DNA from: Mariniblastus sp.
Lineage (GTDB): Bacteria; Planctomycetota; Planctomycetia; Pirellulales; Pirellulaceae
Direction: 5' to 3'
DNA: 64,000 nucleotides
Assembly (NCBI GenBank): GCA_045105295.1
Contig: JBGCDK010000105.1
Coordinates: 3,445 to 67,444 of the forward strand
Shown: piece by piece, positions 48,990 to 62,598 of the stretch
Numbering within the stretch: the stretch's first letter is position 1
How the letters are laid out: each line of letters opens with the position of its first letter
Notes under the pieces: generated by a model
The model's database searches: none
Told to the model about the DNA's origin: nothing
The model's input: only the letters and a program-made list of their open reading frames with translations
Program-made: the position numbers and the translations under genes

Positions 48990-51713
48990 ATGGCCTTTGT
49001 TTTTGCCATCCTTCTCGCTTTAGCGGTTTTCGCCGCTCCGTGGCCAATCGGCGGCAATTGGGCCTTCACGCGCTTGGCTCTACTACTAGTTACGTTTAGT
49101 GGTTTGATTGGGGCAGTACTATGCCAATTCAAATCGTCACAAAGTCATGACACTCGGCGGACTGTGGTTTGGATGCTGTTGCTGATTGGTATCGCGTTTA
49201 CCTATTTTCAATCTTCCGACCTGAGTTCCTCTGTCCAAGCCCGGTTTGGCAAAGAAAACTCCGCCGTCAATATTTCGAAACGAATGGATGATACTTCGGA
49301 TGCTACTGCAACATCCAATACAAGTGACGGTCTGGCTCAACGACCAGTTTCGGTCTACCCCGGCGCAACGCGCGAAAAATTGGTTGACCTGATTCTCGGA
49401 GTCGGCTTGTTTTTCGCAGCCAGTGTTTTGTTGATCGAAAGAAAATCAATTCTTGCGATTCTTATCTCGCTCGCATCGGTGGGGGTGGCGATAAGCTTTT
49501 TTGGCGTCATTCAAAACCTTTCTTGGAATGGAAAACTTTTCTGGAGCTACGAACTGCTTTCCGGGGGTGGTCCATTCGGGTCGTTCGTGAACAAGAACAA
49601 CGCAGCTGGCTTTATGTTGATCAGTTTCAGCGCAACGATATTTTTCATTGCCAACCAGTTGTTGATTTGGAATCGAAGACAAGAGCCAGGTGGTTTGGTA
49701 TTGTCGTCTGTCGATTGGGAAAGTGAGCAACGAGAAAGTGAATCCTGGATCAAGCGATTCATGTCGATGGTCGCGTTGGTCGAACCCAAGCATCTCTACA
49801 TTGGAGCAGGCGTTGCCATAATCTTTGCAGGCGTTTTTGCATCACTCTCACGGGGTGGGATGGTTGCACTGGCGGGCGCGACGATCGTTGCCATCATTAG
49901 TGTGGGAAACATCAATCGAAAACTGGCCGCAGTGTTAGCCATTGCGTTGATCGGCTCTGGCGTTGCGTTCCTAAAATATTCTGAACAAGACGTTGGGATT
50001 TCAGATTCTTTGGAATCGCTCGCGGACATCAGCAACGCTGCCGCTCCAAGGTTGGCTCATTGGCAAGACGCATGGCCTTTCGCCATGGAGAATCTCGCGT
50101 TGGGGAGTGGAAATGGAACCTACCGTTACGTTTCTCCTTCGTTTCAATCTTTCTTTTTCCCGCGGACCTATGCCCACGCAGAGTCGATTTACCTCGAGAC
50201 GATTGTCGAAATGGGAGTCGGCGGCGTATTGCTACTGTTGCTTGTGATTGGAGTTTGTTTTTCGGGGTCGCTTAGACTGCTAACACGACGAGAGACTTTT
50301 GACCGTGCACTTGGCGTGACTGGCCTGACGTGTCTTACGGGGCAAGTGATTTCTTCGGCGTTTGATTTTGGAATGTATCAACCAGCAAATACCGTCGCGA
50401 TGGCGGTGTTGATGGGAGCGGTCGTTGGTCGTGCAAGCCAGCCTGAAACTCGCAACAAACCGAACACGGTCATGAGTGCACGAGTGGTAATCCTCGGCGG
50501 ACTGATGCTTATGCTGTTTTGTACTGGCTGGGCTAGTTACAATTCTTACGGGATCGAATCGCGGAAAAGCGCCACCCGAGCGATCAAGTTTTTAAATCGC
50601 AACAGACAGAAAGACGTTTCTGTCGGGCGAAACTCGCTGGACGAAATCGAGGCTCAATTAACAACAGCGATTGAAATTGTTCCCGACGATTTCAAGGCTC
50701 ATTTCCAGCTTGGCGAATTGTACGTTGCCAAGTACCGAGTCATCCAAGCCAAAAAAGTTACCGAGTCGTTAAAGGAAGAACTGAAGGCTCTCAAAGAATC
50801 AGGTGCCAGCCAAGAACAGTTGGCGTCGCTTGACATGCTTTCGAGTATTGATGCTCCAGCCGTTTGGGCCTCGACTTCGATATCGGCACTTCACCGCGAA
50901 GTCCGATTTCGAGATAGGAACAACCCAACCCTTGCTGAAGAAATTCGCAACGACGAAGGTGTCCAAGAATTTCTTAAGCCGGCTTGGGAATCTTTCTTGA
51001 AAGCCGAATCAATTTGCCCTCGTGTCGGTCATACGAAATTTCGATTGGCACAGTTGAGTGCCCTCTTCGATCCTGATCTGGAAATTGAATCCAAATATCT
51101 CGTTTCGGCACTGTCTCGTTCGCATTCGAGCACTCAGCTGAGATTTGATTGTGGGCTACTGGCGCTCAGCAGTGGTGATCAAGAGTTGGCCGTGGAATTG
51201 TGGGCAAAATGCCTTTCGACGCCCCACTTGAACGCTCAAGAAAAGGTAATTGTGGAGTTGTCCAAAACCGAACTGCCCATGAAATTGCTGTTTGAACGGG
51301 TTCTCCCGCAAAACCCGCTTAACCTGCTTCGTGTTGCACGGAAATACTTCCGAGAGCCTCGACTGGAGCTTCCAAAGCGAATGCTGCTGGTTCATACTAG
51401 ACGCGTAATTGATAAAAACACTGAACTTTCCGACGCTGACCGTTTTTTCTTTTTAGGCGAAACGGATAGACTGGTGGATCAATTCGAAGCTGCAGCTGAG
51501 AACTACAAGAAAGCTCTCGACGCAGACCCCGCAAGGATTGCATGGCGATTTGAGTATGCAAAATGTTTGCACCAGATCGGTAATTTTGATGAAGCAGTAC
51601 GCCAACTCAAAATTTGCGAATTAGAACCAAGCAAAATCCACTCTTTCATCAAACCACTTTTGGACCGAATACGCAAAGACCGCGCAAACGCAACTGAAAA
51701 AGTTCGTTTTTAA
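48990..51713 (+). CDS. O-antigen ligase (Wzy_C) family protein with large C-terminal TPR region
   Basis: Multiple TM helices; GSFVNKNNAAG, SLSRGG, RLAHW, GSGNGTY, HAESIYLE; TPR-like repeats in the last ~350 aa. Confidence 0.85.
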   Translation: MAFVFAILLALAVFAAPWPIGGNWAFTRLALLLVTFSGLIGAVLCQFKSSQSHDTRRTVVWMLLLIGIAFTYFQSSDLSSSVQARFGKENSAVNISKRMDDTSDATATSNTSDGLAQRPVSVYPGATREKLVDLILGVGLFFAASVLLIERKSILAILISLASVGVAISFFGVIQNLSWNGKLFWSYELLSGGGPFGSFVNKNNAAGFMLISFSATIFFIANQLLIWNRRQEPGGLVLSSVDWESEQRESESWIKRFMSMVALVEPKHLYIGAGVAIIFAGVFASLSRGGMVALAGATIVAIISVGNINRKLAAVLAIALIGSGVAFLKYSEQDVGISDSLESLADISNAAAPRLAHWQDAWPFAMENLALGSGNGTYRYVSPSFQSFFFPRTYAHAESIYLETIVEMGVGGVLLLLLVIGVCFSGSLRLLTRRETFDRALGVTGLTCLTGQVISSAFDFGMYQPANTVAMAVLMGAVVGRASQPETRNKPNTVMSARVVILGGLMLMLFCTGWASYNSYGIESRKSATRAIKFLNRNRQKDVSVGRNSLDEIEAQLTTAIEIVPDDFKAHFQLGELYVAKYRVIQAKKVTESLKEELKALKESGASQEQLASLDMLSSIDAPAVWASTSISALHREVRFRDRNNPTLAEEIRNDEGVQEFLKPAWESFLKAESICPRVGHTKFRLAQLSALFDPDLEIESKYLVSALSRSHSSTQLRFDCGLLALSSGDQELAVELWAKCLSTPHLNAQEKVIVELSKTELPMKLLFERVLPQNPLNLLRVARKYFREPRLELPKRMLLVHTRRVIDKNTELSDADRFFFLGETDRLVDQFEAAAENYKKALDADPARIAWRFEYAKCLHQIGNFDEAVRQLKICELEPSKIHSFIKPLLDRIRKDRANATEKVRF

Positions 51714-51793
51714 GTTCATTGGAATTCGTTTCGACTCCTCCACTTCCACAGTTCTACTACCTCGATTGACAGCTTAAACGGAGCCCCGCTCAG

Positions 51794-54103
51794 ATGTCTC
51801 TAATCAACGTCGATTTTCCCAACGGTCCAAACCATCCCAGTGCGGGCCACAACGGTATGCAACAGGCAGCTGGTCAAAAAACAGACGCTTATAGTCTTGA
51901 TCTTTTCGATTTGGTCAAAAGGAAATTCTGGATCATTCAGTTTTTCGTCTTGTTGGGTATTGGGCTTTCGTTGTTGTATTACTTCAAAGCTCCAAAAACC
52001 TATGAGTCGATTGCGACAATTTTTGTCGATGAGAAATCGGCTCCAATGGCCGGCGACTCAGATGGCTTTTCAAACGAAAGCTCAATAGAAAAGTATCTCG
52101 TTACTTTAAAGAGTACGAAGATCCTCAAGCCTGCCATTGCCTCTGGTAATTTTCACGACCTTGATACATTTGCCGACTGCGATGACATCCTTTACTTCCT
52201 CCGTGAAGAAGACGCTCTCTCCGCTAAACCAGCAGATGCGAAATCGACATCGGGTGTTATCAAGCTCTCGTTCCAAGGCAGCTCGCCAGAGGAATGCCAA
52301 GCCGTGCTCGACGAAATCGTGGCAACGTTTGACGAACACATTCTGTCGACCACCAAGAATATTGGTGGAGAGACAGCAAAATTGGTCACTGATATCAAGG
52401 ATCAAATGCTGACTCAGCTAGAAGAGGTTGATGCTGAGATCCGTGAATTGATGGTTCGGCCTGAACTTCTCAACATCGACGGGCGAGTCGTTAATCCGCA
52501 CCAAATGCAGCTGGGGTTGCTTCATCAGGAACTACACGATGTTCGAAGCGAGCGTCGAAAGATTCTTGCTCGCGTCGAAAATGTCAAAAAGGATTTGGCA
52601 CTCGGGAAAATGCCTGAGGATTTGGTCGTCGAGATCATGAGTGAGTCGGTCGACAAATCAACGGGTGCTTACGCAACGGTTCAGAGCCAATTTGTTGAGC
52701 TGAAAATCAAAGAGCAAGAGCTGTTGAATCAGTTCGGCCCCGATCACCCTGATGTCCGCTCGATTCGGAACAAAATCGAAACTGTCGACCAAATGCGTTT
52801 ACAAGAGCTTGCCGCAATGCGAGGGAGTAAGCGTCAGAACGACGGTGAAGCATCGACTCAAAATCTGGTCGCTGATTTTCTGAATCAGATGCAACGCAAA
52901 GTCGCGATGCTGAATTCAGAAGAGAAAAGCTTGGACGAATCAATTCAGGCAGAGCAACAGGAATCGACTTCTGTTTCTGCTTTGGTTGAAAACCTAAACA
53001 GCCTCCAGCGTAAGCGTGAGCGATTGGAAAACGGATCAGCCGCGATCATCGAACGATTGGGCGAGATTAACGCGTTGAAAGAACACTTGTGGCGTAACCT
53101 TGCTGTACTTGATCCTCCATCGTTGGGCGAAAAAGTTGCTCCAAGTTTGCCGATCAGCTTGGCTGCTGGATTTTTCCTTGGTTCATTGTTGGGGCTTCTG
53201 TTCGCAGGATTCAAAGACATCGCCGAGAAAACGTTCCGCTCATCTGACGACGTTGGCAAAATGTTGAACACCCGCGTGATTGGACACGTCAGCATGTTCC
53301 AAAAACTTAGAGCGAAACAACGGAACAGTCAGTTTCCAAACGTACAGGCCGAGGTCGTTACGATGCACGCACCCGCGGCTCAGTCGAGCGAGTCCTACCG
53401 GGCCATCCGAACCTCGATCTTTTTTAAGGCTCAGGAAACAGGAGCCAAGGTCATCCAGGTCACGAGTCCGACTCCTGGCGATGGAAAATCTACGACAATT
53501 TCAAACTTGGCGGCTTCGATCGCCCAGTCAGGCCGGCGTGTTTTGCTAATCGACGCAGACATGCGAAAGCCAGTCCAGCATAAACTGTTCGGAGTCACGA
53601 ATGATTTTGGATTGACCTCCGCGATCAGTGGCGAAATGGATCCTGAAGAAGTCATCCAGCCAATCCAGGCAGAGTATTTGTCGATCGTGACCGCCGGCCC
53701 GATTCCAAACAATCCGGCCGAGCTACTGACGTCCGCTCGATTTGCTGCGATCATCGAAGAGTACAGAAGCCAATTCGATTTTGTCTTGATCGACACGCCT
53801 CCAATGCTTGCCGTCACCGACCCAAGCATCGTCTGCGGTCATGTCGATCTGGTCTATCTTGTGATGCGAATTCGAAATGGTGTTAGAACGAGTGCTTTGC
53901 GAGCCAAAGAGATTATCGACTCGATGGGAATCGAACTCGGTGGTGTCGTCATCAACGGTTTGCGTCGCCGTGACCAGAAAACTTACGAGTACTCGGGACA
54001 GTACGGTTACGGTACGAATCAATACGGTCGTGGGAATAAGGCTGCTGCATCGGTACCAGCAGCAAGGACGGCACGAAAAAAACGACCCAGTTCGCGAGTA
54101 TAG
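51794..54103 (+). CDS. wzc: Polysaccharide co-polymerase tyrosine autokinase
   Basis: Two TM helices flanking coiled coil; TSPTPGDGKST, LIDADMR, LIDTPP; Tyr cluster YEYSGQYGYGTNQY. Confidence 0.93.
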   Translation: MSLINVDFPNGPNHPSAGHNGMQQAAGQKTDAYSLDLFDLVKRKFWIIQFFVLLGIGLSLLYYFKAPKTYESIATIFVDEKSAPMAGDSDGFSNESSIEKYLVTLKSTKILKPAIASGNFHDLDTFADCDDILYFLREEDALSAKPADAKSTSGVIKLSFQGSSPEECQAVLDEIVATFDEHILSTTKNIGGETAKLVTDIKDQMLTQLEEVDAEIRELMVRPELLNIDGRVVNPHQMQLGLLHQELHDVRSERRKILARVENVKKDLALGKMPEDLVVEIMSESVDKSTGAYATVQSQFVELKIKEQELLNQFGPDHPDVRSIRNKIETVDQMRLQELAAMRGSKRQNDGEASTQNLVADFLNQMQRKVAMLNSEEKSLDESIQAEQQESTSVSALVENLNSLQRKRERLENGSAAIIERLGEINALKEHLWRNLAVLDPPSLGEKVAPSLPISLAAGFFLGSLLGLLFAGFKDIAEKTFRSSDDVGKMLNTRVIGHVSMFQKLRAKQRNSQFPNVQAEVVTMHAPAAQSSESYRAIRTSIFFKAQETGAKVIQVTSPTPGDGKSTTISNLAASIAQSGRRVLLIDADMRKPVQHKLFGVTNDFGLTSAISGEMDPEEVIQPIQAEYLSIVTAGPIPNNPAELLTSARFAAIIEEYRSQFDFVLIDTPPMLAVTDPSIVCGHVDLVYLVMRIRNGVRTSALRAKEIIDSMGIELGGVVINGLRRRDQKTYEYSGQYGYGTNQYGRGNKAAASVPAARTARKKRPSSRV

Positions 54104-55479: not shown

Positions 55480-56292
55480 TCATTGCCCTTCGATCCGTTT
55501 GATCACCTCGCTCAAAACATCGTCTTTCATTTCGATCGTGTTGCTCCGATCAGGGAACCGACCGTCAACCACATCGGCAGCGTACTCTTGAAACGCAGCG
55601 ACTCTTTCTTGCTGAAGCCGTTTATGTTCGGCACTGAAATCACGATACGATTTCGCATGACGGGGGAGCCGTTCGTCATAGTCTCCCAAGATATCATCCG
55701 AGAAAAGAAACTGCGTGTCGCAACCGTCACCAGAGCCGAGCGACATCAAAATCATAGAAGTGTTTTTAGATAGGTAGCTCGCCAGCTGATGCGGCACACA
55801 TTCCAGTTCTGCCGCGTAAGCCCCGGCTTCCTCAAGCCGTTTCATTTGACGAAAGAGCTCAACCGCTTCATCGGGCTTTTTACCAATCGCACGATAACCG
55901 GTCCAAGTCACGTGCCTCGGGACCATCCCCAGATGGCCAACAACTGGAACACGCTCGTTCGCCATGGCTTGGATAATTTCGAGGCTCCCCGAGCAGTAGA
56001 CTGAACTTGCGCCAGCCTCCAATGCTTCAAACGCGATCTTGATGGCTTCTGAGCTCGACGCCATGCCGTTTGGCGAAGCGCACGAGATAAAACTGGTCGG
56101 AGCGGCGGCGACGATTTTTGGCAGGCGTGCCTGGGCTTCGGGAGAATCGAAACTGCAGCTCAGCAAATCAATTCCGGCTTGTTCGGCGGCGGTGGCTTCT
56201 TCCGAAGATTTTACATGAACATGTGTCAAGCAACGTTGACCTTTTAGTTTTTGCAAATCGTAGACCGTGTATCGTTTTCTTGGTCGAAGCAT
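55480..56292 (-). CDS. Divergent PanB-like (ketopantoate hydroxymethyltransferase family) protein
   Basis: VPVVGHLGMVP, LEEAGAYAAELECVP, SLGSG..CDTQFLFSDDILG; N-terminal metal motifs altered; start at MLRPRK chosen. Confidence 0.8.
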   Translation of the reverse strand: MLRPRKRYTVYDLQKLKGQRCLTHVHVKSSEEATAAEQAGIDLLSCSFDSPEAQARLPKIVAAAPTSFISCASPNGMASSSEAIKIAFEALEAGASSVYCSGSLEIIQAMANERVPVVGHLGMVPRHVTWTGYRAIGKKPDEAVELFRQMKRLEEAGAYAAELECVPHQLASYLSKNTSMILMSLGSGDGCDTQFLFSDDILGDYDERLPRHAKSYRDFSAEHKRLQQERVAAFQEYAADVVDGRFPDRSNTIEMKDDVLSEVIKRIEGQ

Positions 56293-56367: not shown

Positions 56368-56398
56368 AAAAAAACGCCCGTCTAAGATGACGGGCGTT
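56368..56398 (-). terminator. Rho-independent terminator after the YceI gene
   Basis: AACGCCCGTC-TAAGAT-GACGGGCGTT perfect stem with A-tract. Confidence 0.8.
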
Positions 56399-56488
56399 AG
56401 AAATTTGGTTGCCAAAAAGATGGCTGATCGGTGCAGCAGGCACTTGGAAGTTTTCTACCAAACGCGAACTGAAGTCAGGTCGATCAAC

Positions 56489-57481
56489 TTACTTGCCGTT
56501 GCCACCGCGTTGACCGCCTCTTTGTCCGCTCCCACGCTGTCCACGCTCGGAACGCATCTTCTCGAAGAACTCATTGAATTCCTTTTTCGAAACGGATTCG
56601 TCACCGTCAGCGTCCATTCGCTTAAGTCGATCCTGCATGCCGCTTTCGACTTCATCCATTGAGATTTTTCCATCGCTGTTCTTGTCTTGTTGTTTGAAGA
56701 ACACATCTGGGTTCCACCCGCCACGACCACCGGCTCCCCGACCACCTCTAGCAGCTGGAGCAGCACCTGCAGTTGTTTTTTCGCCAACAGAAAGATTGAT
56801 GGCGACTTCTTTGGCGACTCGGTCAACCATGTTTCCCATGCCGAAAGAAGTTCGGTCCAGTTTAAATTCTGATTTTGCTGTAACGCCAGCTTCCGTTTTC
56901 TTCATGGCAACAGGAAGAGTGATTTCGTTGGTCTTTCCCATGATTGTCAGATCGCCAACAACATTCAAAGTGCCTTCTTTTTCATCGGCAGCAACACTTT
57001 TACTTTCGAATTTAGCCGTTGGGTATTTTTTGGCATCAAAGAAATCTTCGTTGAGTAAATGCCCGGTCAGTTTCTCACCGGCTTCTGTCCAGATCGAGTC
57101 GATTTGAAATTCCATCGAAAGCGATTTGATCGACGAGCCATCCTCAGTCAATGACAACGATCCATTGAATTTTTTAAATCCACCCAAACGCGCGTTCGGG
57201 TCTTCGCCAGACTCAACGATGTGGGTACCGACAAAGTCGATCTTGGTATTCTCTGGTGTCAGTGCCGCTGTTCCGTCATTGAACTCGATAACGACTGGCT
57301 TGGATTCCTGGGTTCCACCGCGTCGTCCGCGCTGGCCTCGTTGCCGTCGACCACCCTCGGGCCGAGCATCATCTGCAGTTTTAGCAGCGGGCTTCGACTC
57401 TTTCTCGGCAGTGTCTTGTGCATGAATATTTGTTGAACCCGCAATCAGCATCGCGAACGATAAGTAGATTAATTTTTTCAT
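56489..57481 (-). CDS. Secreted YceI-family protein with C-terminal EF-hand pair
   Basis: Signal peptide; HLLNEDFFDAKKYPTAKFES, GDLTIMG.T.EI, LDRTSFGM; DKNSDGKISMDE and DADGDESVSKKE; start at MKKLIY chosen. Confidence 0.85.
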   Translation of the reverse strand: MKKLIYLSFAMLIAGSTNIHAQDTAEKESKPAAKTADDARPEGGRRQRGQRGRRGGTQESKPVVIEFNDGTAALTPENTKIDFVGTHIVESGEDPNARLGGFKKFNGSLSLTEDGSSIKSLSMEFQIDSIWTEAGEKLTGHLLNEDFFDAKKYPTAKFESKSVAADEKEGTLNVVGDLTIMGKTNEITLPVAMKKTEAGVTAKSEFKLDRTSFGMGNMVDRVAKEVAINLSVGEKTTAGAAPAARGGRGAGGRGGWNPDVFFKQQDKNSDGKISMDEVESGMQDRLKRMDADGDESVSKKEFNEFFEKMRSERGQRGSGQRGGQRGGNGK

Positions 57482-57909
57482 TTGAAGTTCCATTGTTGGA
57501 GAAATTGGACGACGGATTATCGACTATTCGAACCCGCAGTGGAACTCTAGCTGCAGAAAATTGCCTCCAAAAAATCGGCAGTTTTGCAAACTCGAACAGT
57601 TTCTCATCCTCTCATTTTCCTTTTTCACAAACAAAATTTACCAGCGGAATAAGTGTTGCTGAATGGTTTGGTGAATTTGTTCACTTCAAGATTTTTTGGC
57701 GCGATTCTGTGAATGCAAAATAAAAGCGTGAGGCTTGCAGGATTGGGGGAACGACTGAAACGGTAATCGTGTTGTGTCTCCTATCGTGTTGTAAATATGT
57801 AAAACCAAATCCGTGGGCAGAGAAAAGTTGAAAAAGTGCTTTCGGATAAAATAGACAAGGAGTAATATTGAAAAAGCAATTTTCGAAACCGCTCTAATTG
57901 GTTTATCCG

Positions 57910-58521
57910 ATGACGAATCTTCCTGATCAACCAAACGAAAATTTCAAAGAGCTGATTCGTAAAGCGAGAGAAGGCGATGAAAATGCGCTAGGGGAATTGC
58001 TTCAAAACTTCCGAGACTACTTGCTGAAAATTTCGATAGAGGAATTGGGGAACGGACTCAATGGAAAAGTAGGGGCCTCCGATGTTGTTCAGGAGGCAAC
58101 GATGACGGCGATTAAGAATTTTAAGCAATTTAAAGATCATGATTCACCAGCACTCAGGGCTTGGCTTCGAACGATCTTATTGAATCAAGTCAAACAACAC
58201 ATTCGAACTTTTAAGGGAACGCAGAAACGCCAATTAGATCGTGAATGCTCTCTGCAGCTTAATTCCTCTACTGAAATTCCAGTTGTTGATCCTCACTTAA
58301 CCCCGCAATCCAACGCGTTGAGCTTGGAAAAATCTGCCGGTTTGATCCGGGCAATGCGAGAGCTGCCAGATGAATATCAGCAAGTCATCCGGCTTCGTTC
58401 GTTCGAGGTTTTGGATTTCGCAACGATTGGCGAGGCAATGTCTCGGTCCGCCGATGCTGCTAAAAAGTTGTGGACAAGAGCAATTCTGAAACTCCAACAA
58501 GTGATGGCTAGAGAAGAGTAG
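57910..58521 (+). CDS. ECF sigma factor, planctomycete-specific subfamily (TIGR02984-like), copy 1
   Basis: ARxGDxxALGxLL...RDYL, GASDVVQE, AWLRTIL.N, LP..YQQVI.LR. Confidence 0.9.
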   Translation: MTNLPDQPNENFKELIRKAREGDENALGELLQNFRDYLLKISIEELGNGLNGKVGASDVVQEATMTAIKNFKQFKDHDSPALRAWLRTILLNQVKQHIRTFKGTQKRQLDRECSLQLNSSTEIPVVDPHLTPQSNALSLEKSAGLIRAMRELPDEYQQVIRLRSFEVLDFATIGEAMSRSADAAKKLWTRAILKLQQVMAREE

Positions 58522-58826
58522 GCATAGGTCGTGTTTCGAAAGCGATCGCCTATGCTTGGTTGCCTCAATCGTTTGGTGGGCAATTTTTGTCGTGCGCCTT
58601 TCGCCTGTCGAGTCTAGTTTCTGTTCTTCGGGCTAAGAGACCGATATAAACGTAGGCATTGAAGCGGTTTCTGGCTTCGCAAGCACACTAGACCGTTCAG
58701 TTGCCCCGGCATCCCAACAACAAGTCAATAAAAACGACAAAACCGAGATTTTTCGTGTCCGTTTGCGGTCCGTTTGGCACTTGGTGGAGTAGAAGGCTAT
58801 GTTCAGAAGTCAAAAAGGGGGCGCTC

Positions 58827-59435
58827 GTGGTAAAAAACAACGAAGGTGAATTCGAATTTTTAACACTGCTGGAACAAGCCCGTCACGGTGATGCCGTTGC
58901 CACCGGCCGACTCCTTCAGCATCACCGCAATTATCTACTGCTGATCGCTAACCAAGAACTCGATAGTGTTATCGCTCAGAAATTTGGAGCGTCAGACATT
59001 GTTCAGGAATCTTTGCTAACTGCTCACCAGCAATTTGGTAGGTTTCAGGGCAAAGAGAAAAAGCAGCTTGTAGCTTGGTTGCGTCAAATTTTGATCAACG
59101 ACCTAAATCAGGCTCGGCGAACATTTAAGGGAACTCAAAAACGCCAAGTCGATCGTGAACAGCCATTACAATCCAGTTCGTCTCATGTTCGCCCATTGGT
59201 GGATCAAGAATTGACTCCGCAAACCAATGCCTTGGCCGTGGAGCAACGCTGCCATCTCAGATTAGCGATTGCCGCTCTGCCGGCGGATTATCAAAAAGTC
59301 ATAGAGCTTCATTCATTCGACAAAATGGAGTTCAGTGAGATTGGTAAAATAATGGAGCGTTCATCTGAAGCCTGCCAGAAGTTGTGGACTCGAGCCGTGC
59401 TCAAGCTACGAGATCATTGGGGACAAATGACTTGA
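58827..59435 (+). CDS. ECF sigma factor, planctomycete-specific subfamily (TIGR02984-like), copy 2
   Basis: ARHGD.VATG.LL..HRNYL, GASDIVQE, AWLRQIL.N, LPADYQKVI; GTG start after a GGGGG RBS-like run. Confidence 0.9.
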   Translation: MVKNNEGEFEFLTLLEQARHGDAVATGRLLQHHRNYLLLIANQELDSVIAQKFGASDIVQESLLTAHQQFGRFQGKEKKQLVAWLRQILINDLNQARRTFKGTQKRQVDREQPLQSSSSHVRPLVDQELTPQTNALAVEQRCHLRLAIAALPADYQKVIELHSFDKMEFSEIGKIMERSSEACQKLWTRAVLKLRDHWGQMT

Positions 59436-59496
59436 CGCAGTCGCCATAGCCATTTTTGTTTTAGATAATTGCGAGACAATTTTAAACGAGCTAGGA

Positions 59497-62400
59497 ATGC
59501 CGAACGAACGAGATGGAGGCCCATCGAGCGACGACTCAATTTCAAACGAATCGCTCAATGCCTTGTATGAAAAAATCATTAATCAAAAGGACGATAATGG
59601 CGCACTGGACCCCGATGTTATCGGGGCACGCCAAGTCCTCGCGATCATCGAGCAGATACGTGATATCGAAAAAGGGGATACGGCTCGGGCCAACGAAACT
59701 CGGCGAAACGAGGAAAACTTTAAAGAGTACATCAATGACGACTCTGAGTCTTGGCCGTCAAAAATTGGTCGGTTTGAATTGCAAGAACCGATTGGCCGTG
59801 GTGGTTTCGGTGTTGTGTTTTTAGCTCACGACCCAAACCTTGGGCGCGATATCGCTTTGAAAATTCCGCGCCCCGAAGTCGTGACAACACCCGAGTTGAA
59901 ATCACGTTTTGTCCGAGAGGGGCGTGCTTCGGCGGCTCTCTCGCATCCAAACATCGTTCCTGTTTTTGAATCGGGGCAAGTCGGATCCATCTGTTATTTG
60001 GCCAGTCAATTTGTAGATGGCGAAACCCTTGAGCAATGGCAGTCGAATCAGGAAACGATCGCCTTAGCCCCTGCCGCTAAAATCGTTTCGACCTTGGCGG
60101 AAGCGATTTCTCACGCGCATCAACGCGGTATTCTTCATCGGGACATCAAGCCTGCCAATGTGATGCTTGCCCAAAATGATGAAAATGACGTTTCAGGTAA
60201 AGTCAGGATCATGGATTTTGGATTGGCCAAAGTCATTGGTGAGTCGAGTGAATTTTCGCGAACAAATGCGATCGTCGGAACGCCTGCCTACATGTCGCCA
60301 GAGCAAGCCAATCAAAAAGACGCGACAGAAGCCAGTGACATTTACTCATTGGGAGCCATTCTTTTCCAGTTACTCACTGGGAAACCACCGTTGCTGAAGG
60401 AGAGTTTCTTGGAAACGATTTCGGCGGTGGCAAATGAGGACGCCGTTCCTCCCAGTAAATTTAGAAACGACATACCCAAAGACCTCGATGCAATCACGCT
60501 TAAGTGCTTGGAAAAGGACCCCCGAAAACGTTACCGTTCTGCATTTGATCTGCACCGAGATTTGAACGCGTGGCTTGGTGGCAAACCGGTCGTGGCTCGC
60601 AGGCCCTCATTGCCCGAGAGGTGCAACCGCTGGATTAAATCTAATCGAGTTTTGGCGGTTTCGATGGCAACTGTCTTCGCAATACTGACTTGCGCGACAA
60701 TTGTGAGCGGTTATTTCGCCTATCGTTCCAATATTGATCAGCGATCGGCGACGGTTGCCAATGGGATCGCGAAAGATAAAACCAAGATCGCAATCAAGCA
60801 GACTGATCGGGTTTCAGAGGCGGTGCAGAGGCTGTTTGTTTCTTTGGCACGTGAACCATCGCTTCAGAAAGCTGAGTTCGCTGAGTTGCGAGAAAGACTA
60901 TATGTTTCGGCGAGCGAGTTTGTTAAGGAGCTCCACGTCGAGCAAGAGGACGACCCGCACCTTCAAGATCGGTATTTTAAATTGCTGGTTTGGGCGGCAC
61001 AAGTTTATAGCGAACTTGGCCGTAGCTCCGCCGGTCTTGCAACATTGAAAGAAGCCGAGGCTTTGATTGAGAAAATGGCGGAATCGAACGTCAACAATGA
61101 TCAATCGGCATACCAGCTAAACATCGTGAGGTCGATTCGTGCGAGGGTGTTACTTGATGCGGGGCATGCAGATGAGGCACTCGCGGAATCCCTCATTGCG
61201 CTAGATTTTGCTGAGCAGCAGTACTATTTGAACCTTGAAGACGACGTTAAAGCAGGTGTTCTTTTCAAGGAACTTGACTACGCCTGTGGACTGGCTCTCA
61301 AGGCTGGCGATTTTGCAAATCACAAAAGTCTTACCGATCGGTTCGAGAATGCTCTGACTGCGATCCATAAATCTGATCCTTTGGATTGGCCAGTTGATCG
61401 ACACTGTGCGGCATGTTTAACTCAAATAGCCAACGTTGCACTGAATGTTGGGAATGATGCCTCGGCTGAATCTTTGGTGAACAAAGCACTGGGGATTTGG
61501 CGGGAACTTGGAGCTAAGGAAGAATCGACTATCCACGCTGGTTGTGGGGCGAGCTCAGCAACGAGTAGTCAGATGGCAACCGTTTTGCAACGCTTGGCAG
61601 TTGCAAAATCAAATCAAGGGAAACTTGAGAAAGCCGAGGAACTGTTTCAGGCATACCAAAAAATGATCTCGCATCCTGACTTGCAACATGACCTTTCTAA
61701 TTTGAAGGCACTTGTTGCAAGTCATTACGATCTAGCACTCGTGGCGTTCAGACAGTCAAAATATCAAGACTGCATTGACCGATGCAAACAATGCATCGAC
61801 GGTTCGAAGCAGATTGCATTGAAGGCTCCTGAATCGGATGCGGCCTATGAAGCATTAAAAGCACAGCACATACTGCATGTCGCCTACTGTCGTTTGGGGA
61901 AACTGGAGGACGGCGAAAGAGAACTGTTGCTAGCGGTCGAAAAAGGCGAAGCGTTATTAAATCGCGATCCAAGCAATGAAAGATTTCAAGCCGAGCTTGG
62001 ATCAATCTTCTGCAATGCGGGCTACTTTTACATAAAAGAGCGCAAGGATCCTGCACGTGCATTGGAGTTGGCGGATAAAGCCGTTGCCAGCGCAGAGGCG
62101 TCATACCAAAAAGGGAAGTTCACGCTGGCCTACAACCGATACTGTGTCGCTTTGATGAATCGAGCGATGGCAGGACGCAATAATGGTGATGCCATTTCCG
62201 AGGTAGAGTATTTGGAGCGTTTTCTCAAGATCGGTCAACAAGATGATCGCTACCAAAAGATTCGACAAACAATGATGCGAGCCTACTGTTCGGCTTTCCA
62301 GTTTGATAAAGCCATCGAGCAGATGGAGGTTTTGTTAAACGAAGACTCTGTTGCACACCAACGTTTTGATATTGCGAAAGCGATTGCGCAAGCGCTCAGC

Positions 62401-62598
62401 GAGTTGGACAATGAAGAAGTAAAAGCAAAACATGATGTTGAAAAATTCATTAACGAGATGTCGAAAGCCGCGATAGAACTCCTCAATGATTTGAAAGCAG
62501 AGAATTATCAACGTGGTGGGAAAGCGATAGAAGAGTTGTTGAAAGAAAACAGCTTCAACCCATTGCGAGAGCTACCCGAATTTCCAGGAAACTCATAA
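59497..62598 (+). CDS. Hanks-type Ser/Thr protein kinase with TM helix and TPR-like C-terminal region
   Basis: GRGGFGVV, ALKIP, HRDIKPAN, DFGL, GTPAYMSPEQ; TM VLAVSMATVFAILTCATIVSGYFAY. Confidence 0.95.
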   Translation: MPNERDGGPSSDDSISNESLNALYEKIINQKDDNGALDPDVIGARQVLAIIEQIRDIEKGDTARANETRRNEENFKEYINDDSESWPSKIGRFELQEPIGRGGFGVVFLAHDPNLGRDIALKIPRPEVVTTPELKSRFVREGRASAALSHPNIVPVFESGQVGSICYLASQFVDGETLEQWQSNQETIALAPAAKIVSTLAEAISHAHQRGILHRDIKPANVMLAQNDENDVSGKVRIMDFGLAKVIGESSEFSRTNAIVGTPAYMSPEQANQKDATEASDIYSLGAILFQLLTGKPPLLKESFLETISAVANEDAVPPSKFRNDIPKDLDAITLKCLEKDPRKRYRSAFDLHRDLNAWLGGKPVVARRPSLPERCNRWIKSNRVLAVSMATVFAILTCATIVSGYFAYRSNIDQRSATVANGIAKDKTKIAIKQTDRVSEAVQRLFVSLAREPSLQKAEFAELRERLYVSASEFVKELHVEQEDDPHLQDRYFKLLVWAAQVYSELGRSSAGLATLKEAEALIEKMAESNVNNDQSAYQLNIVRSIRARVLLDAGHADEALAESLIALDFAEQQYYLNLEDDVKAGVLFKELDYACGLALKAGDFANHKSLTDRFENALTAIHKSDPLDWPVDRHCAACLTQIANVALNVGNDASAESLVNKALGIWRELGAKEESTIHAGCGASSATSSQMATVLQRLAVAKSNQGKLEKAEELFQAYQKMISHPDLQHDLSNLKALVASHYDLALVAFRQSKYQDCIDRCKQCIDGSKQIALKAPESDAAYEALKAQHILHVAYCRLGKLEDGERELLLAVEKGEALLNRDPSNERFQAELGSIFCNAGYFYIKERKDPARALELADKAVASAEASYQKGKFTLAYNRYCVALMNRAMAGRNNGDAISEVEYLERFLKIGQQDDRYQKIRQTMMRAYCSAFQFDKAIEQMEVLLNEDSVAHQRFDIAKAIAQALSELDNEEVKAKHDVEKFINEMSKAAIELLNDLKAENYQRGGKAIEELLKENSFNPLRELPEFPGNS

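Follow-up and report, generated by a model that had tools for sequence, protein, structure and literature searches.

A PanB-fold protein family with a rebuilt active site, systematically annotated as PanB in Verrucomicrobiota and Pirellulaceae

A gene in a Mariniblastus sp. contig (JBGCDK010000105.1) encodes a member of a PanB-fold family whose active site has been rebuilt, and which is systematically misannotated. The analysis covered a stretch of 64,000 nucleotides of this contig, which we call the window. The encoded PanB-like protein is almost certainly not the ketopantoate hydroxymethyltransferase of the cell. As a tentative assignment that may well prove wrong, we suggest that the window's family carries out a tetrahydrofolate-linked transfer of a one-carbon unit (formaldehyde or hydroxymethyl) without the participation of a keto acid. 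The gene and the signal that separates it from its upstream neighbour are located as follows.

55480-56292, minus strand: PanB-like gene (P0001), an open reading frame whose translation has 270 amino acids, followed by a stop codon.
56373-56398, minus strand: intrinsic terminator of the upstream YceI/EF-hand gene, with a 10-pair stem that includes 7 G-C pairs, and a T run.

The start codon is the ATG at 56290-56292, and the N-terminal residues M-L-R-P-R-K that it opens are conserved in every relative of the protein. A TTG at 56415 that would give a longer frame was rejected as an unused start, given that all relatives begin with these six residues. The upstream YceI/EF-hand gene ends in its own terminator, and the PanB-like gene therefore forms its own transcription unit. 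Between this terminator and the start codon, no Rfam element or riboswitch matched near its gathering score. Neighbouring genes in the window provide no functional hint; apart from the YceI/EF-hand protein, they encode a protein of the TatA type, a Wzy/Wzc pair for polysaccharide export, and two ECF sigma factors together with a Ser/Thr kinase.

The protein belongs to Pfam family PF02548 (125.8 bits), with the match confined to residues 61-248. It falls below the cut-off of the NCBI panB equivalog TIGR00222 (97.3 bits versus 207.55) and below that of NF001452 (110.8 bits versus 272). An AF2 model (pLDDT 96) predicts a complete (beta/alpha)8 barrel with eight strands, for which the best Foldseek matches are the PanB structures 3VAV and 1M3U (TM 0.72, 24-25% identity). 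Next in rank, at E about 1e-8 and TM about 0.5, come dimethylmalate lyase, methylisocitrate lyase and carboxyPEP mutase. The protein thus combines membership in PF02548 with a predicted PanB fold and the barrel of the ICL/PEP-mutase superfamily, in agreement with the superfamily placement offered by the original prediction, which had been made from the DNA letters alone. A HMMER search against solved structures matched five PanB entries only, and these only from residue 60-78 on; judging by these matches, there is no solved structure outside canonical PanB.

A word-indexed search returned 2,861 relatives, and the best 120 of these 2,861 are all 72-78% identical to the window's protein over the full length. 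Many of the best 120 are named '3-methyl-2-oxobutanoate hydroxymethyltransferase' by their source. The expectation that automated annotation would call such genes panB is borne out, as pipelines apply this name although the NCBIfam equivalog cut-off is not reached. These sequences form a narrow family, 70-78% identical across Verrucomicrobiota and Pirellulaceae, for which we count 449 loci when one genome per species (GTDB) is considered, nearly all of them in Verrucomicrobiota, with the addition of Pirellulaceae. An exhaustive HMMER search of representatives clustered at 50% identity uncovered many further full-length relatives at 35-48% identity, which also are without LVGDS, D84 and K112/E114 (E. 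coli PanB numbering). In a tree that includes canonical PanBs (IQ-TREE quick search, LG+C20), a long branch with support of 100 separates this divergent clade from canonical PanB. The narrow family is monophyletic and short-branched, and is nested well inside the divergent clade (support 99). The protein is thus a PanB paralogue, as had been proposed, from a lineage clearly split from true PanB. A literature search found nothing on a 'PanB-like' family or on PanB paralogues of this kind.

The motif changes that distinguish the protein from PanB were checked in three ways, namely by HMMER alignment to 1M3U, which also fixed the E. coli residue numbering, by MAFFT alignment to the genome's own canonical PanB, and by hhalign comparison of a 20-sequence family profile with a 22-sequence canonical PanB profile (probability 99.9, E 1e-34). 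In PanB, we take D45, D84 and E114 to be the Mg ligands, S46 and K112 to contact the keto acid, and E181 to be the proton acceptor (1M3U complex, UniProt P31057). The corresponding segments of the PanB-like protein are the following.

56206-56226, minus strand: T23-H-V-H-V-K-S29 at the end of strand beta1, replacing PanB T-A-Y-D (hhalign).
56137-56160, minus strand: S45-C-S-F-D-S-P-E52 at the end of beta2, replacing LVGDS and the long loop and helix (MAFFT and hhalign).
56071-56085, minus strand: S70-C-A-S-P74 at the end of beta3, with A72 in place of PanB Mg ligand D84 (hhalign).
55990-56001, minus strand: V98-Y-C-S101 in beta4, with Y99 in place of PanB K112 and S101 in place of E114 (HMMER and hhalign).
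55927-55938, minus strand: G-H120-L-G in beta5, kept from PanB, where the His is H136 (HMMER, MAFFT and hhalign).
55900-55917, minus strand: R126-H-V-T-W-T131 in the loop after beta5, with the divergent-clade hallmarks T129 and W130.
55792-55809, minus strand: E162-L-E164-C-V-P in beta6, in which E164 corresponds to the PanB proton acceptor E181 (HMMER and hhalign).
55693-55743, minus strand: the beta7-beta8 block with S184, D192, Q194 and D200, common to canonical PanB.
55642-55665, minus strand: P210-R-H-A-K-S-Y-R217, with the divergent-clade hallmarks R211 and H212.

The substitutions at TAYD, ADLPF and VKIEG that the original prediction had noted by eye are all recovered, with these motifs lying opposite H26-V27-K28-S29, C71-A72-S73-P74-N75 and V98-Y99-C100-S101-G102, respectively. 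Two Mg2+ ligands of PanB, Asp84 and Glu114, are thus absent (A72, S101), as is the substrate-binding Lys112 (Y99). Among 33 sequences of the wider clade, the D84 column holds G, A, S, N or C and never an acidic residue, and Y99 is present in 24 of the 33 and invariant in the narrow family. The prediction for the LVGDS segment holds only in part. The region after this position, comprising the beta2 loop and helix, is indeed much shorter, by 16-17 residues, but the Asp-Ser pair that was thought to be replaced is placed by hhalign, with a one-residue gap, opposite D49-S50 of the family; the MAFFT alignments differ. The first Mg ligand (D45) and Ser46 may therefore be retained as D49-S50, a pair that is invariant in the narrow family and is not conserved in the wider clade.

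The two elements that had been described as kept are indeed present. H120 is the equivalent of H136 in the GHLG motif, and its column holds His in all 33 wider-clade sequences as well as in canonical PanB. Likewise, the proton acceptor Glu181 is retained as E164 within ELECVP, and this residue is found in 33 of 33 wider-clade sequences, alongside E162 in 32 of 33, where canonical PanB has Val. Other positions show the same pattern of gain: T129 (22/33) and W130 (24/33) stand where canonical PanB has His and Thr, and R211 (29/33) and H212 (33/33) stand where it has Phe and Ser or Lys. D192 and D200 are invariant in all 46 aligned sequences, including canonical PanB. Overall, the divergent clade shares H120, E164, D192, D200 and the glycines with canonical PanB and has gained Y99, T129, W130, E162, S184, R211 and H212. 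The hallmarks Y99, W130, E162, R211 and H212 are all carried by the window's protein, and the narrow family alone has the H-x-H-x-K-S, S-C-S-F-D-S and Y-C-S motifs. As judged from these alignments, most of PanB's Mg2+ and keto-acid site is lost.

A canonical panB, for which the original prediction had proposed a search elsewhere in the genome, is present. The assembly (6.8 Mb, 175 contigs, 90.5% complete) holds a second PF02548 match of 361.6 bits on another contig, with the motifs AYD, LVGDS, DMPF, KLEGG, HVG and LECIP, and the PanB-like gene is hence not the only PanB homologue of this organism. A panC gene is also present, outside the window's contig. Likewise, in each of four complete verrucomicrobial genomes the paralogue (about 118 bits) is accompanied by a canonical PanB (about 300 bits). 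These observations bear on the idea that the protein still works as a ketopantoate hydroxymethyltransferase, as an isozyme whose active site is unorthodox. Such an isozyme would be in keeping with the PF02548 membership, the PanB fold, the retention of E164 and H120 and possibly that of D49-S50. However, other residues stand in place of the substrate Lys and of two of the three Mg ligands, the score on the equivalog model is 97 against 208 bits, the same genome has a canonical panB, the branch apart from PanB is long and fully supported, and the distribution is patchy and accessory. We consequently judge this explanation to be very improbable.

Conservation within the narrow family is extensive. 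Among 194 distinct family sequences, 102 of the 270 positions are at least 99% invariant, and these include H24, H26, K28 and S29, which are not conserved in the wider clade; S45, C46, S47 and D49 are likewise invariant across the narrow family. Because the altered motifs consist of residues that are at least 99% invariant in these 194 sequences, the changes cannot be attributed to chance or decay. Invariant positions are enriched at the catalytic face, taken here as the C-terminal end positions of the eight strands and the positions that directly follow (36 of 66, compared with 66 of 204 elsewhere; Fisher p = 0.002). The invariant residues on this face include H24, H26, K28, S29, S45, C46, S47, D49, S70, Y99, C100, S101, H120, R126, E162, E164, S184 and D200. 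Nei-Gojobori estimates of dN/dS have a median of 0.095 over 501 pairs and range from 0.04 to 0.19 for the least saturated pairs. Together with the confident model of a complete barrel and its PanB fold matches, these patterns are what a functioning enzyme or a ligand-binding protein would show, and not what a decaying copy would.

The original prediction had left open whether the protein has a different chemistry or is non-catalytic, and the dN/dS of about 0.1 together with the invariant polar residues on the catalytic face leans towards catalysis. A PanB-fold protein without catalytic activity, such as a binding or regulatory subunit that joins decameric PanB or senses a folate- or pantothenate-related metabolite, would account for the loss of most canonical catalytic and metal residues and for the presence of a canonical PanB wherever complete genomes could be checked. 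The high invariance would also fit a protein locked in a large oligomer. However, the invariant polar residues are over-represented on the catalytic face instead of being evenly spread, H120 and the general base E164 persist, and relatives of the protein are terminal genes of oxygenase operons (see below), as would be expected of enzymes. In addition, canonical PanB is nearly universal, and its co-occurrence with the family says little. We therefore consider a non-catalytic role to be unlikely.

The invariant cluster of H24, H26, K28, C46, D49 and C100 could constitute a new metal or substrate site. This raises the prospect of an enzyme of the ICL/PEP-mutase type, a C-C lyase or transferase that depends on a metal and acts on another oxo or hydroxy acid, perhaps without any involvement of folate. 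Such an enzyme would have rebuilt a site for a transition metal, rather than Mg2+, from H24, H26 and D49, possibly with E162/E164 or H120, and these new ligands would replace D45, D84 and E114. In favour of this proposal, H24, H26, D49, S50, C46, C100, E162 and E164 are invariant and located at C-terminal strand ends, D49-S50 is aligned with PanB D45-S46 by hhalign, and dimethylmalate lyase and methylisocitrate lyase of the ICL/PEPM group are the next-best fold matches. Moreover, the documented metal dependence of PanB itself extends to Zn, Co and Mn, with which the enzyme is also active (PMC7770189). Conversely, the surrounding clade does not conserve the His pair or D49, so that the site would have to be a recent reinvention, Y99 takes the place of the Lys that binds the keto acid, and no neighbouring genes indicate an acid substrate; the putative site is deduced from sequence positions. 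We view a lyase or transferase of this kind as the main rival of our preferred assignment, though a doubtful one.

Gene neighbourhoods were surveyed by clustering all open reading frames within six genes on either side of 81 narrow-family loci and by assigning Pfam domains at the first and second positions on either side. The survey of the subfamily that the original prediction had called for gave a divided answer, with no conserved partner for the narrow family (81 loci) and with oxygenase operons for a sister sub-clade. No partner is conserved at the first two positions or within six genes at these 81 loci, and the largest neighbour cluster is a sulfatase found at scattered positions in 21 of them. 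Domains tallied at the first two positions include PrmA (7), RibD (7), Cys/Met PLP enzyme (4), Pro_racemase (4), Dus (4) and P450 (2), and the PrmA, RibD, Dus, Cys/Met PLP and proline-racemase-type neighbours reflect clade-local synteny in small clades only. Oxygenase, Rieske and reductase partners were not found beside the window's gene or at its 80 closest loci. Recurrent fusions were also absent. Two longer proteins were seen, one with an unannotated N-terminal extension and one in which a single FAD_binding_3 monooxygenase is joined to a family fragment on a 2.3-kb contig.

For members of the sister sub-clade (P0128-like), which are 42-44% identical to the window's protein, the order that recurs is LacI (divergent), FA_desaturase-type di-iron oxygenase, Rieske ferredoxin, ferredoxin reductase and PanB-like gene. 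At least one oxygenase component is present at 24 of 80 metagenome loci, and at 17 of the 36 loci with at least three upstream genes. The vicinity often also includes dehydrogenases of the sugar or inositol type and isomerase-like barrels. A sister member within the window's genus lies in a same-strand string of genes for an FA_desaturase-type membrane di-iron oxygenase, a ferredoxin reductase, the PanB-like protein, LysE and AlaE, and this string adjoins IolB/IolC/IolG/IolJ-type genes. In a published report on the msm (methanesulfonate monooxygenase) region, an uncharacterised 'PanB' is located beside a GcvT-like gene and is associated with 'C1-moiety transfer' (PMC4433239).

We return to our preferred assignment, the folate-linked one-carbon transfer. 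PanB binds, and even cleaves, methylene-THF (PMC4814558). The enzyme has two substrates, and the residues lost from the family are those that the 1M3U complex places on its Mg-ketopantoate side; by elimination, the retained half would be the best candidate for handling methylene-THF. To our knowledge, no experiment or structure shows which residues of PanB bind folate, and we know of no folate-bound PanB structure.

Under this proposal, the family would have descended from PanB through the divergent clade, which would have dropped the half of the site that binds Mg2+ and the 2-oxo acid (beta2-beta4, with D84, K112 and E114). H136, the base E181, the Asp-Gln-Asp block of beta7/beta8 and the C-terminal P..K motif would have been kept, and Y99, W130, E162, R211 and H212 would have been gained by the clade. 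A C1 unit at the oxidation level of formaldehyde would then be moved to or from tetrahydrofolate. In place of alpha-ketoisovalerate, the donor or partner might be free formaldehyde or a labile hydroxymethyl or hemiaminal compound, for which no Mg-enolate would be needed. E164 could serve as acid/base, and Y99, W130, R211 and H212 could line the pterin and glutamate site. From these residues we infer both folate binding and one-carbon chemistry. In its most specific form, a still more speculative proposal that we consider unlikely to be right in full, the protein would be a THF-dependent enzyme that captures formaldehyde or hydroxymethyl groups, a folate counterpart of Fae, the formaldehyde-activating enzyme of the H4MPT pathway, derived from PanB by deletion of the keto-acid site. 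It might then act as a stand-alone C1 scavenger in polysaccharide-degrading Verrucomicrobiota and some Pirellulaceae, and the sister sub-clades might employ their PanB-like proteins in the last step of oxidative demethylation operons.

Four observations argue for the one-carbon assignment, namely the terminal position of the 42-44% identical sister sub-clade in oxygenase operons, the 'PanB' beside a GcvT-like gene in the msm region, the binding and cleavage of methylene-THF by PanB, and the scarcity of Fae in the verrucomicrobial order that carries the family most often, in which 1 genome out of 201 was found to have it. Several others argue against it. The narrow family is without an oxygenase partner, and the operons belong to its 42-44% identical relatives. 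Formaldehyde and tetrahydrofolate condense spontaneously. The window's genome carries two fae genes, and a second formaldehyde-activating route is therefore not obviously needed. Furthermore, the invariant His/Cys/Asp/Lys cluster that is specific to the family does not follow from this assignment, and points to a new metal site or to a particular co-substrate.

Comparisons of gene content allowed three other proposals to be set aside. A general role as a FolB substitute was ruled out, as FolB is missing from carriers and non-carriers alike (0 of 41 Pirellulales genomes with a score above the cut-off). Complementarity with Fae, which is present in 39 of 41 Pirellulales, was rejected because the presence of Fae does not separate carriers from non-carriers. 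Finally, the existence of an isofunctional sister variant in non-carriers was rejected, since a clade-wide profile finds the same 68 of 201 genomes only. The tests that failed to DISCRIMINATE were thus those for FolB (41 Pirellulales), Fae (41 and 201 genomes) and the clade-wide profile (201 genomes).

Within the window's genus, a full-length copy of the gene is present in 5 of 24 other genomes and a fragmentary copy in 2 more (7/24), and a relative with 41% identity occurs in one further genome. When 400 Planctomycetota were drawn evenly, only four other genomes had members of the divergent clade; among the remaining matches at or below 198 bits, the 4 loci inspected were canonical PanBs. In one verrucomicrobial order the PanB-like gene occurs in 68 of 201 genomes, and in an even draw of the phylum Verrucomicrobiota it occurs in 2 of 301. 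The Pirellulaceae copies form three separate groups, one of which lies inside Verrucomicrobiales sequences (FastTree, moderate support), and the copy of the window's organism groups with Pirellulaceae. The gene is accessory and patchy, a pattern that fits horizontal transfer or repeated loss. At the same time, the family is about 75% identical between phyla, compared with 40-50% for canonical PanBs of the same phylum. It is among the most constrained proteins common to these bacteria, yet it is accessory.

For more than 2,800 relatives from one search, and in 449 species genomes, the name of a vitamin B5 enzyme is almost certainly wrong, and it distorts metabolic reconstructions of Verrucomicrobiota and Planctomycetota. 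We know of no dedicated enzyme that loads free formaldehyde onto tetrahydrofolate. If the folate-linked assignment is true, it would fill this long-noted gap and connect folate metabolism with the demethylation, by oxidation, of methylated sugars, osmolytes and sulfonates.

Among known systems, PanB itself (EC 2.1.2.11; 1M3U, 1OY0, 1O66/1O68, 3EZ4 and 3VAV) is the closest. It shares with the PanB-like protein the (beta/alpha)8 fold and C-terminal helical extension, H136 and E181, the G-x-G..D.Q..D..G block of beta7/beta8 and the P..K.Y motif, whereas the PanB-like protein is only 24-26% identical to it and has a 7-residue insertion in the C-terminal helix. With the divergent clade, whose members are annotated as PanB, the window's protein shares the hallmarks Y99, T129, W130, K138, E162, S184, R211 and H212. 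Its family differs from the rest of this clade in being a slowly evolving subfamily confined to Verrucomicrobiota and Pirellulaceae, with H-x-H-x-K-S, S-C-S-F-D-S-P-E and Y-C-S motifs of its own and without oxygenase, Rieske or reductase partners. The ICL/PEP-mutase lyases (3FA3 for 2,3-dimethylmalate, 9HGQ for 2-methylisocitrate and 4IQD, a carboxyPEP mutase) have the barrel superfamily in common with the protein, but identity is 10-13%, TM is about 0.5 and no metal-ligand motifs are shared. Fae and the GcvT-type domains with which demethylating oxidases bind folate trap a C1 unit at the formaldehyde level on a pterin carrier. They would be functional analogues only of the proposed role, given that their folds are unrelated to that of the PanB-like protein and that Fae uses H4MPT.

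The PanB-like gene of the window has the following genes around it.

48990-54103, forward strand: polysaccharide export pair
56489-57493, reverse strand: secreted-looking protein of unusual make-up, a YceI-like domain fused to an EF-hand, upstream of the PanB-like gene
57898-62598, forward strand: two paralogous planctomycete-type ECF sigma factors, then a Ser/Thr protein kinase

The first gene of the export pair codes for an O-antigen-ligase-like protein (Wzy_C; 907 aa) that contains TPR repeats, and the second for a Wzz/Wzc-type chain-length determinant and tyrosine-kinase ATPase (769 aa). TPR repeats are also carried by the 1033-aa Ser/Thr kinase. The YceI/EF-hand fusion has Gly/Arg-rich low-complexity segments on its flanks. 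One further genome of the genus (locus L005) also has a YceI homologue as the neighbour of its PanB-like gene, but there the two are divergently oriented.

Some metagenome-assembled genome records with members of the PanB-like family (loci L016, L048 and L086) bear the titles Chitinophaga pinensis, Akkermansia muciniphila or Klebsiella sp. These labels are probably unreliable, and in the tree the copies concerned cluster with Verrucomicrobiota sequences. Two proteins have unusual architectures. In P0272 (532 aa, from a metagenome contig of 2.3 kb), a FAD_binding_3 flavin monooxygenase is linked to a PanB-like fragment that is 74% identical to the window's protein; the two parts could be truly fused or could come from a gene call that ran two genes together. 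P0121 (542 aa) carries the PanB-like unit twice in tandem.

Genes for Fae, the H4MPT formaldehyde-activating enzyme, occur twice in the window's genome, both outside the window.

C103:63882-64355: first fae gene
C43:50901-51395: second fae gene

Among related Pirellulales, 39 of 41 genomes have Fae, but in the verrucomicrobial order in which the PanB-like family occurs most frequently only one genome of 201 does. Canonical FolB (PF02152) scored over the cut-off in none of the 41 Pirellulales genomes searched, and in 10 of 14 control genomes; members of this order must make or obtain folate or pterin via another route.

A sister sub-clade of PanB-like proteins is associated with a recurrent operon, found in G023 (a genome of the window's genus) and at metagenome loci L130-L205.

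L095:8617-13097 (G023) and metagenome loci L130-L205, recurrent gene order: divergent LacI; then membrane di-iron oxygenase of the FA_desaturase type, Rieske ferredoxin, ferredoxin reductase, PanB-like protein

In G023, IolB/IolC/IolG/IolJ-type genes and LysE/AlaE exporters adjoin the operon. Our search of the literature found no report of this oxygenase/PanB-like arrangement, which is a candidate system for the oxidative demethylation of methylated sugars or inositols.
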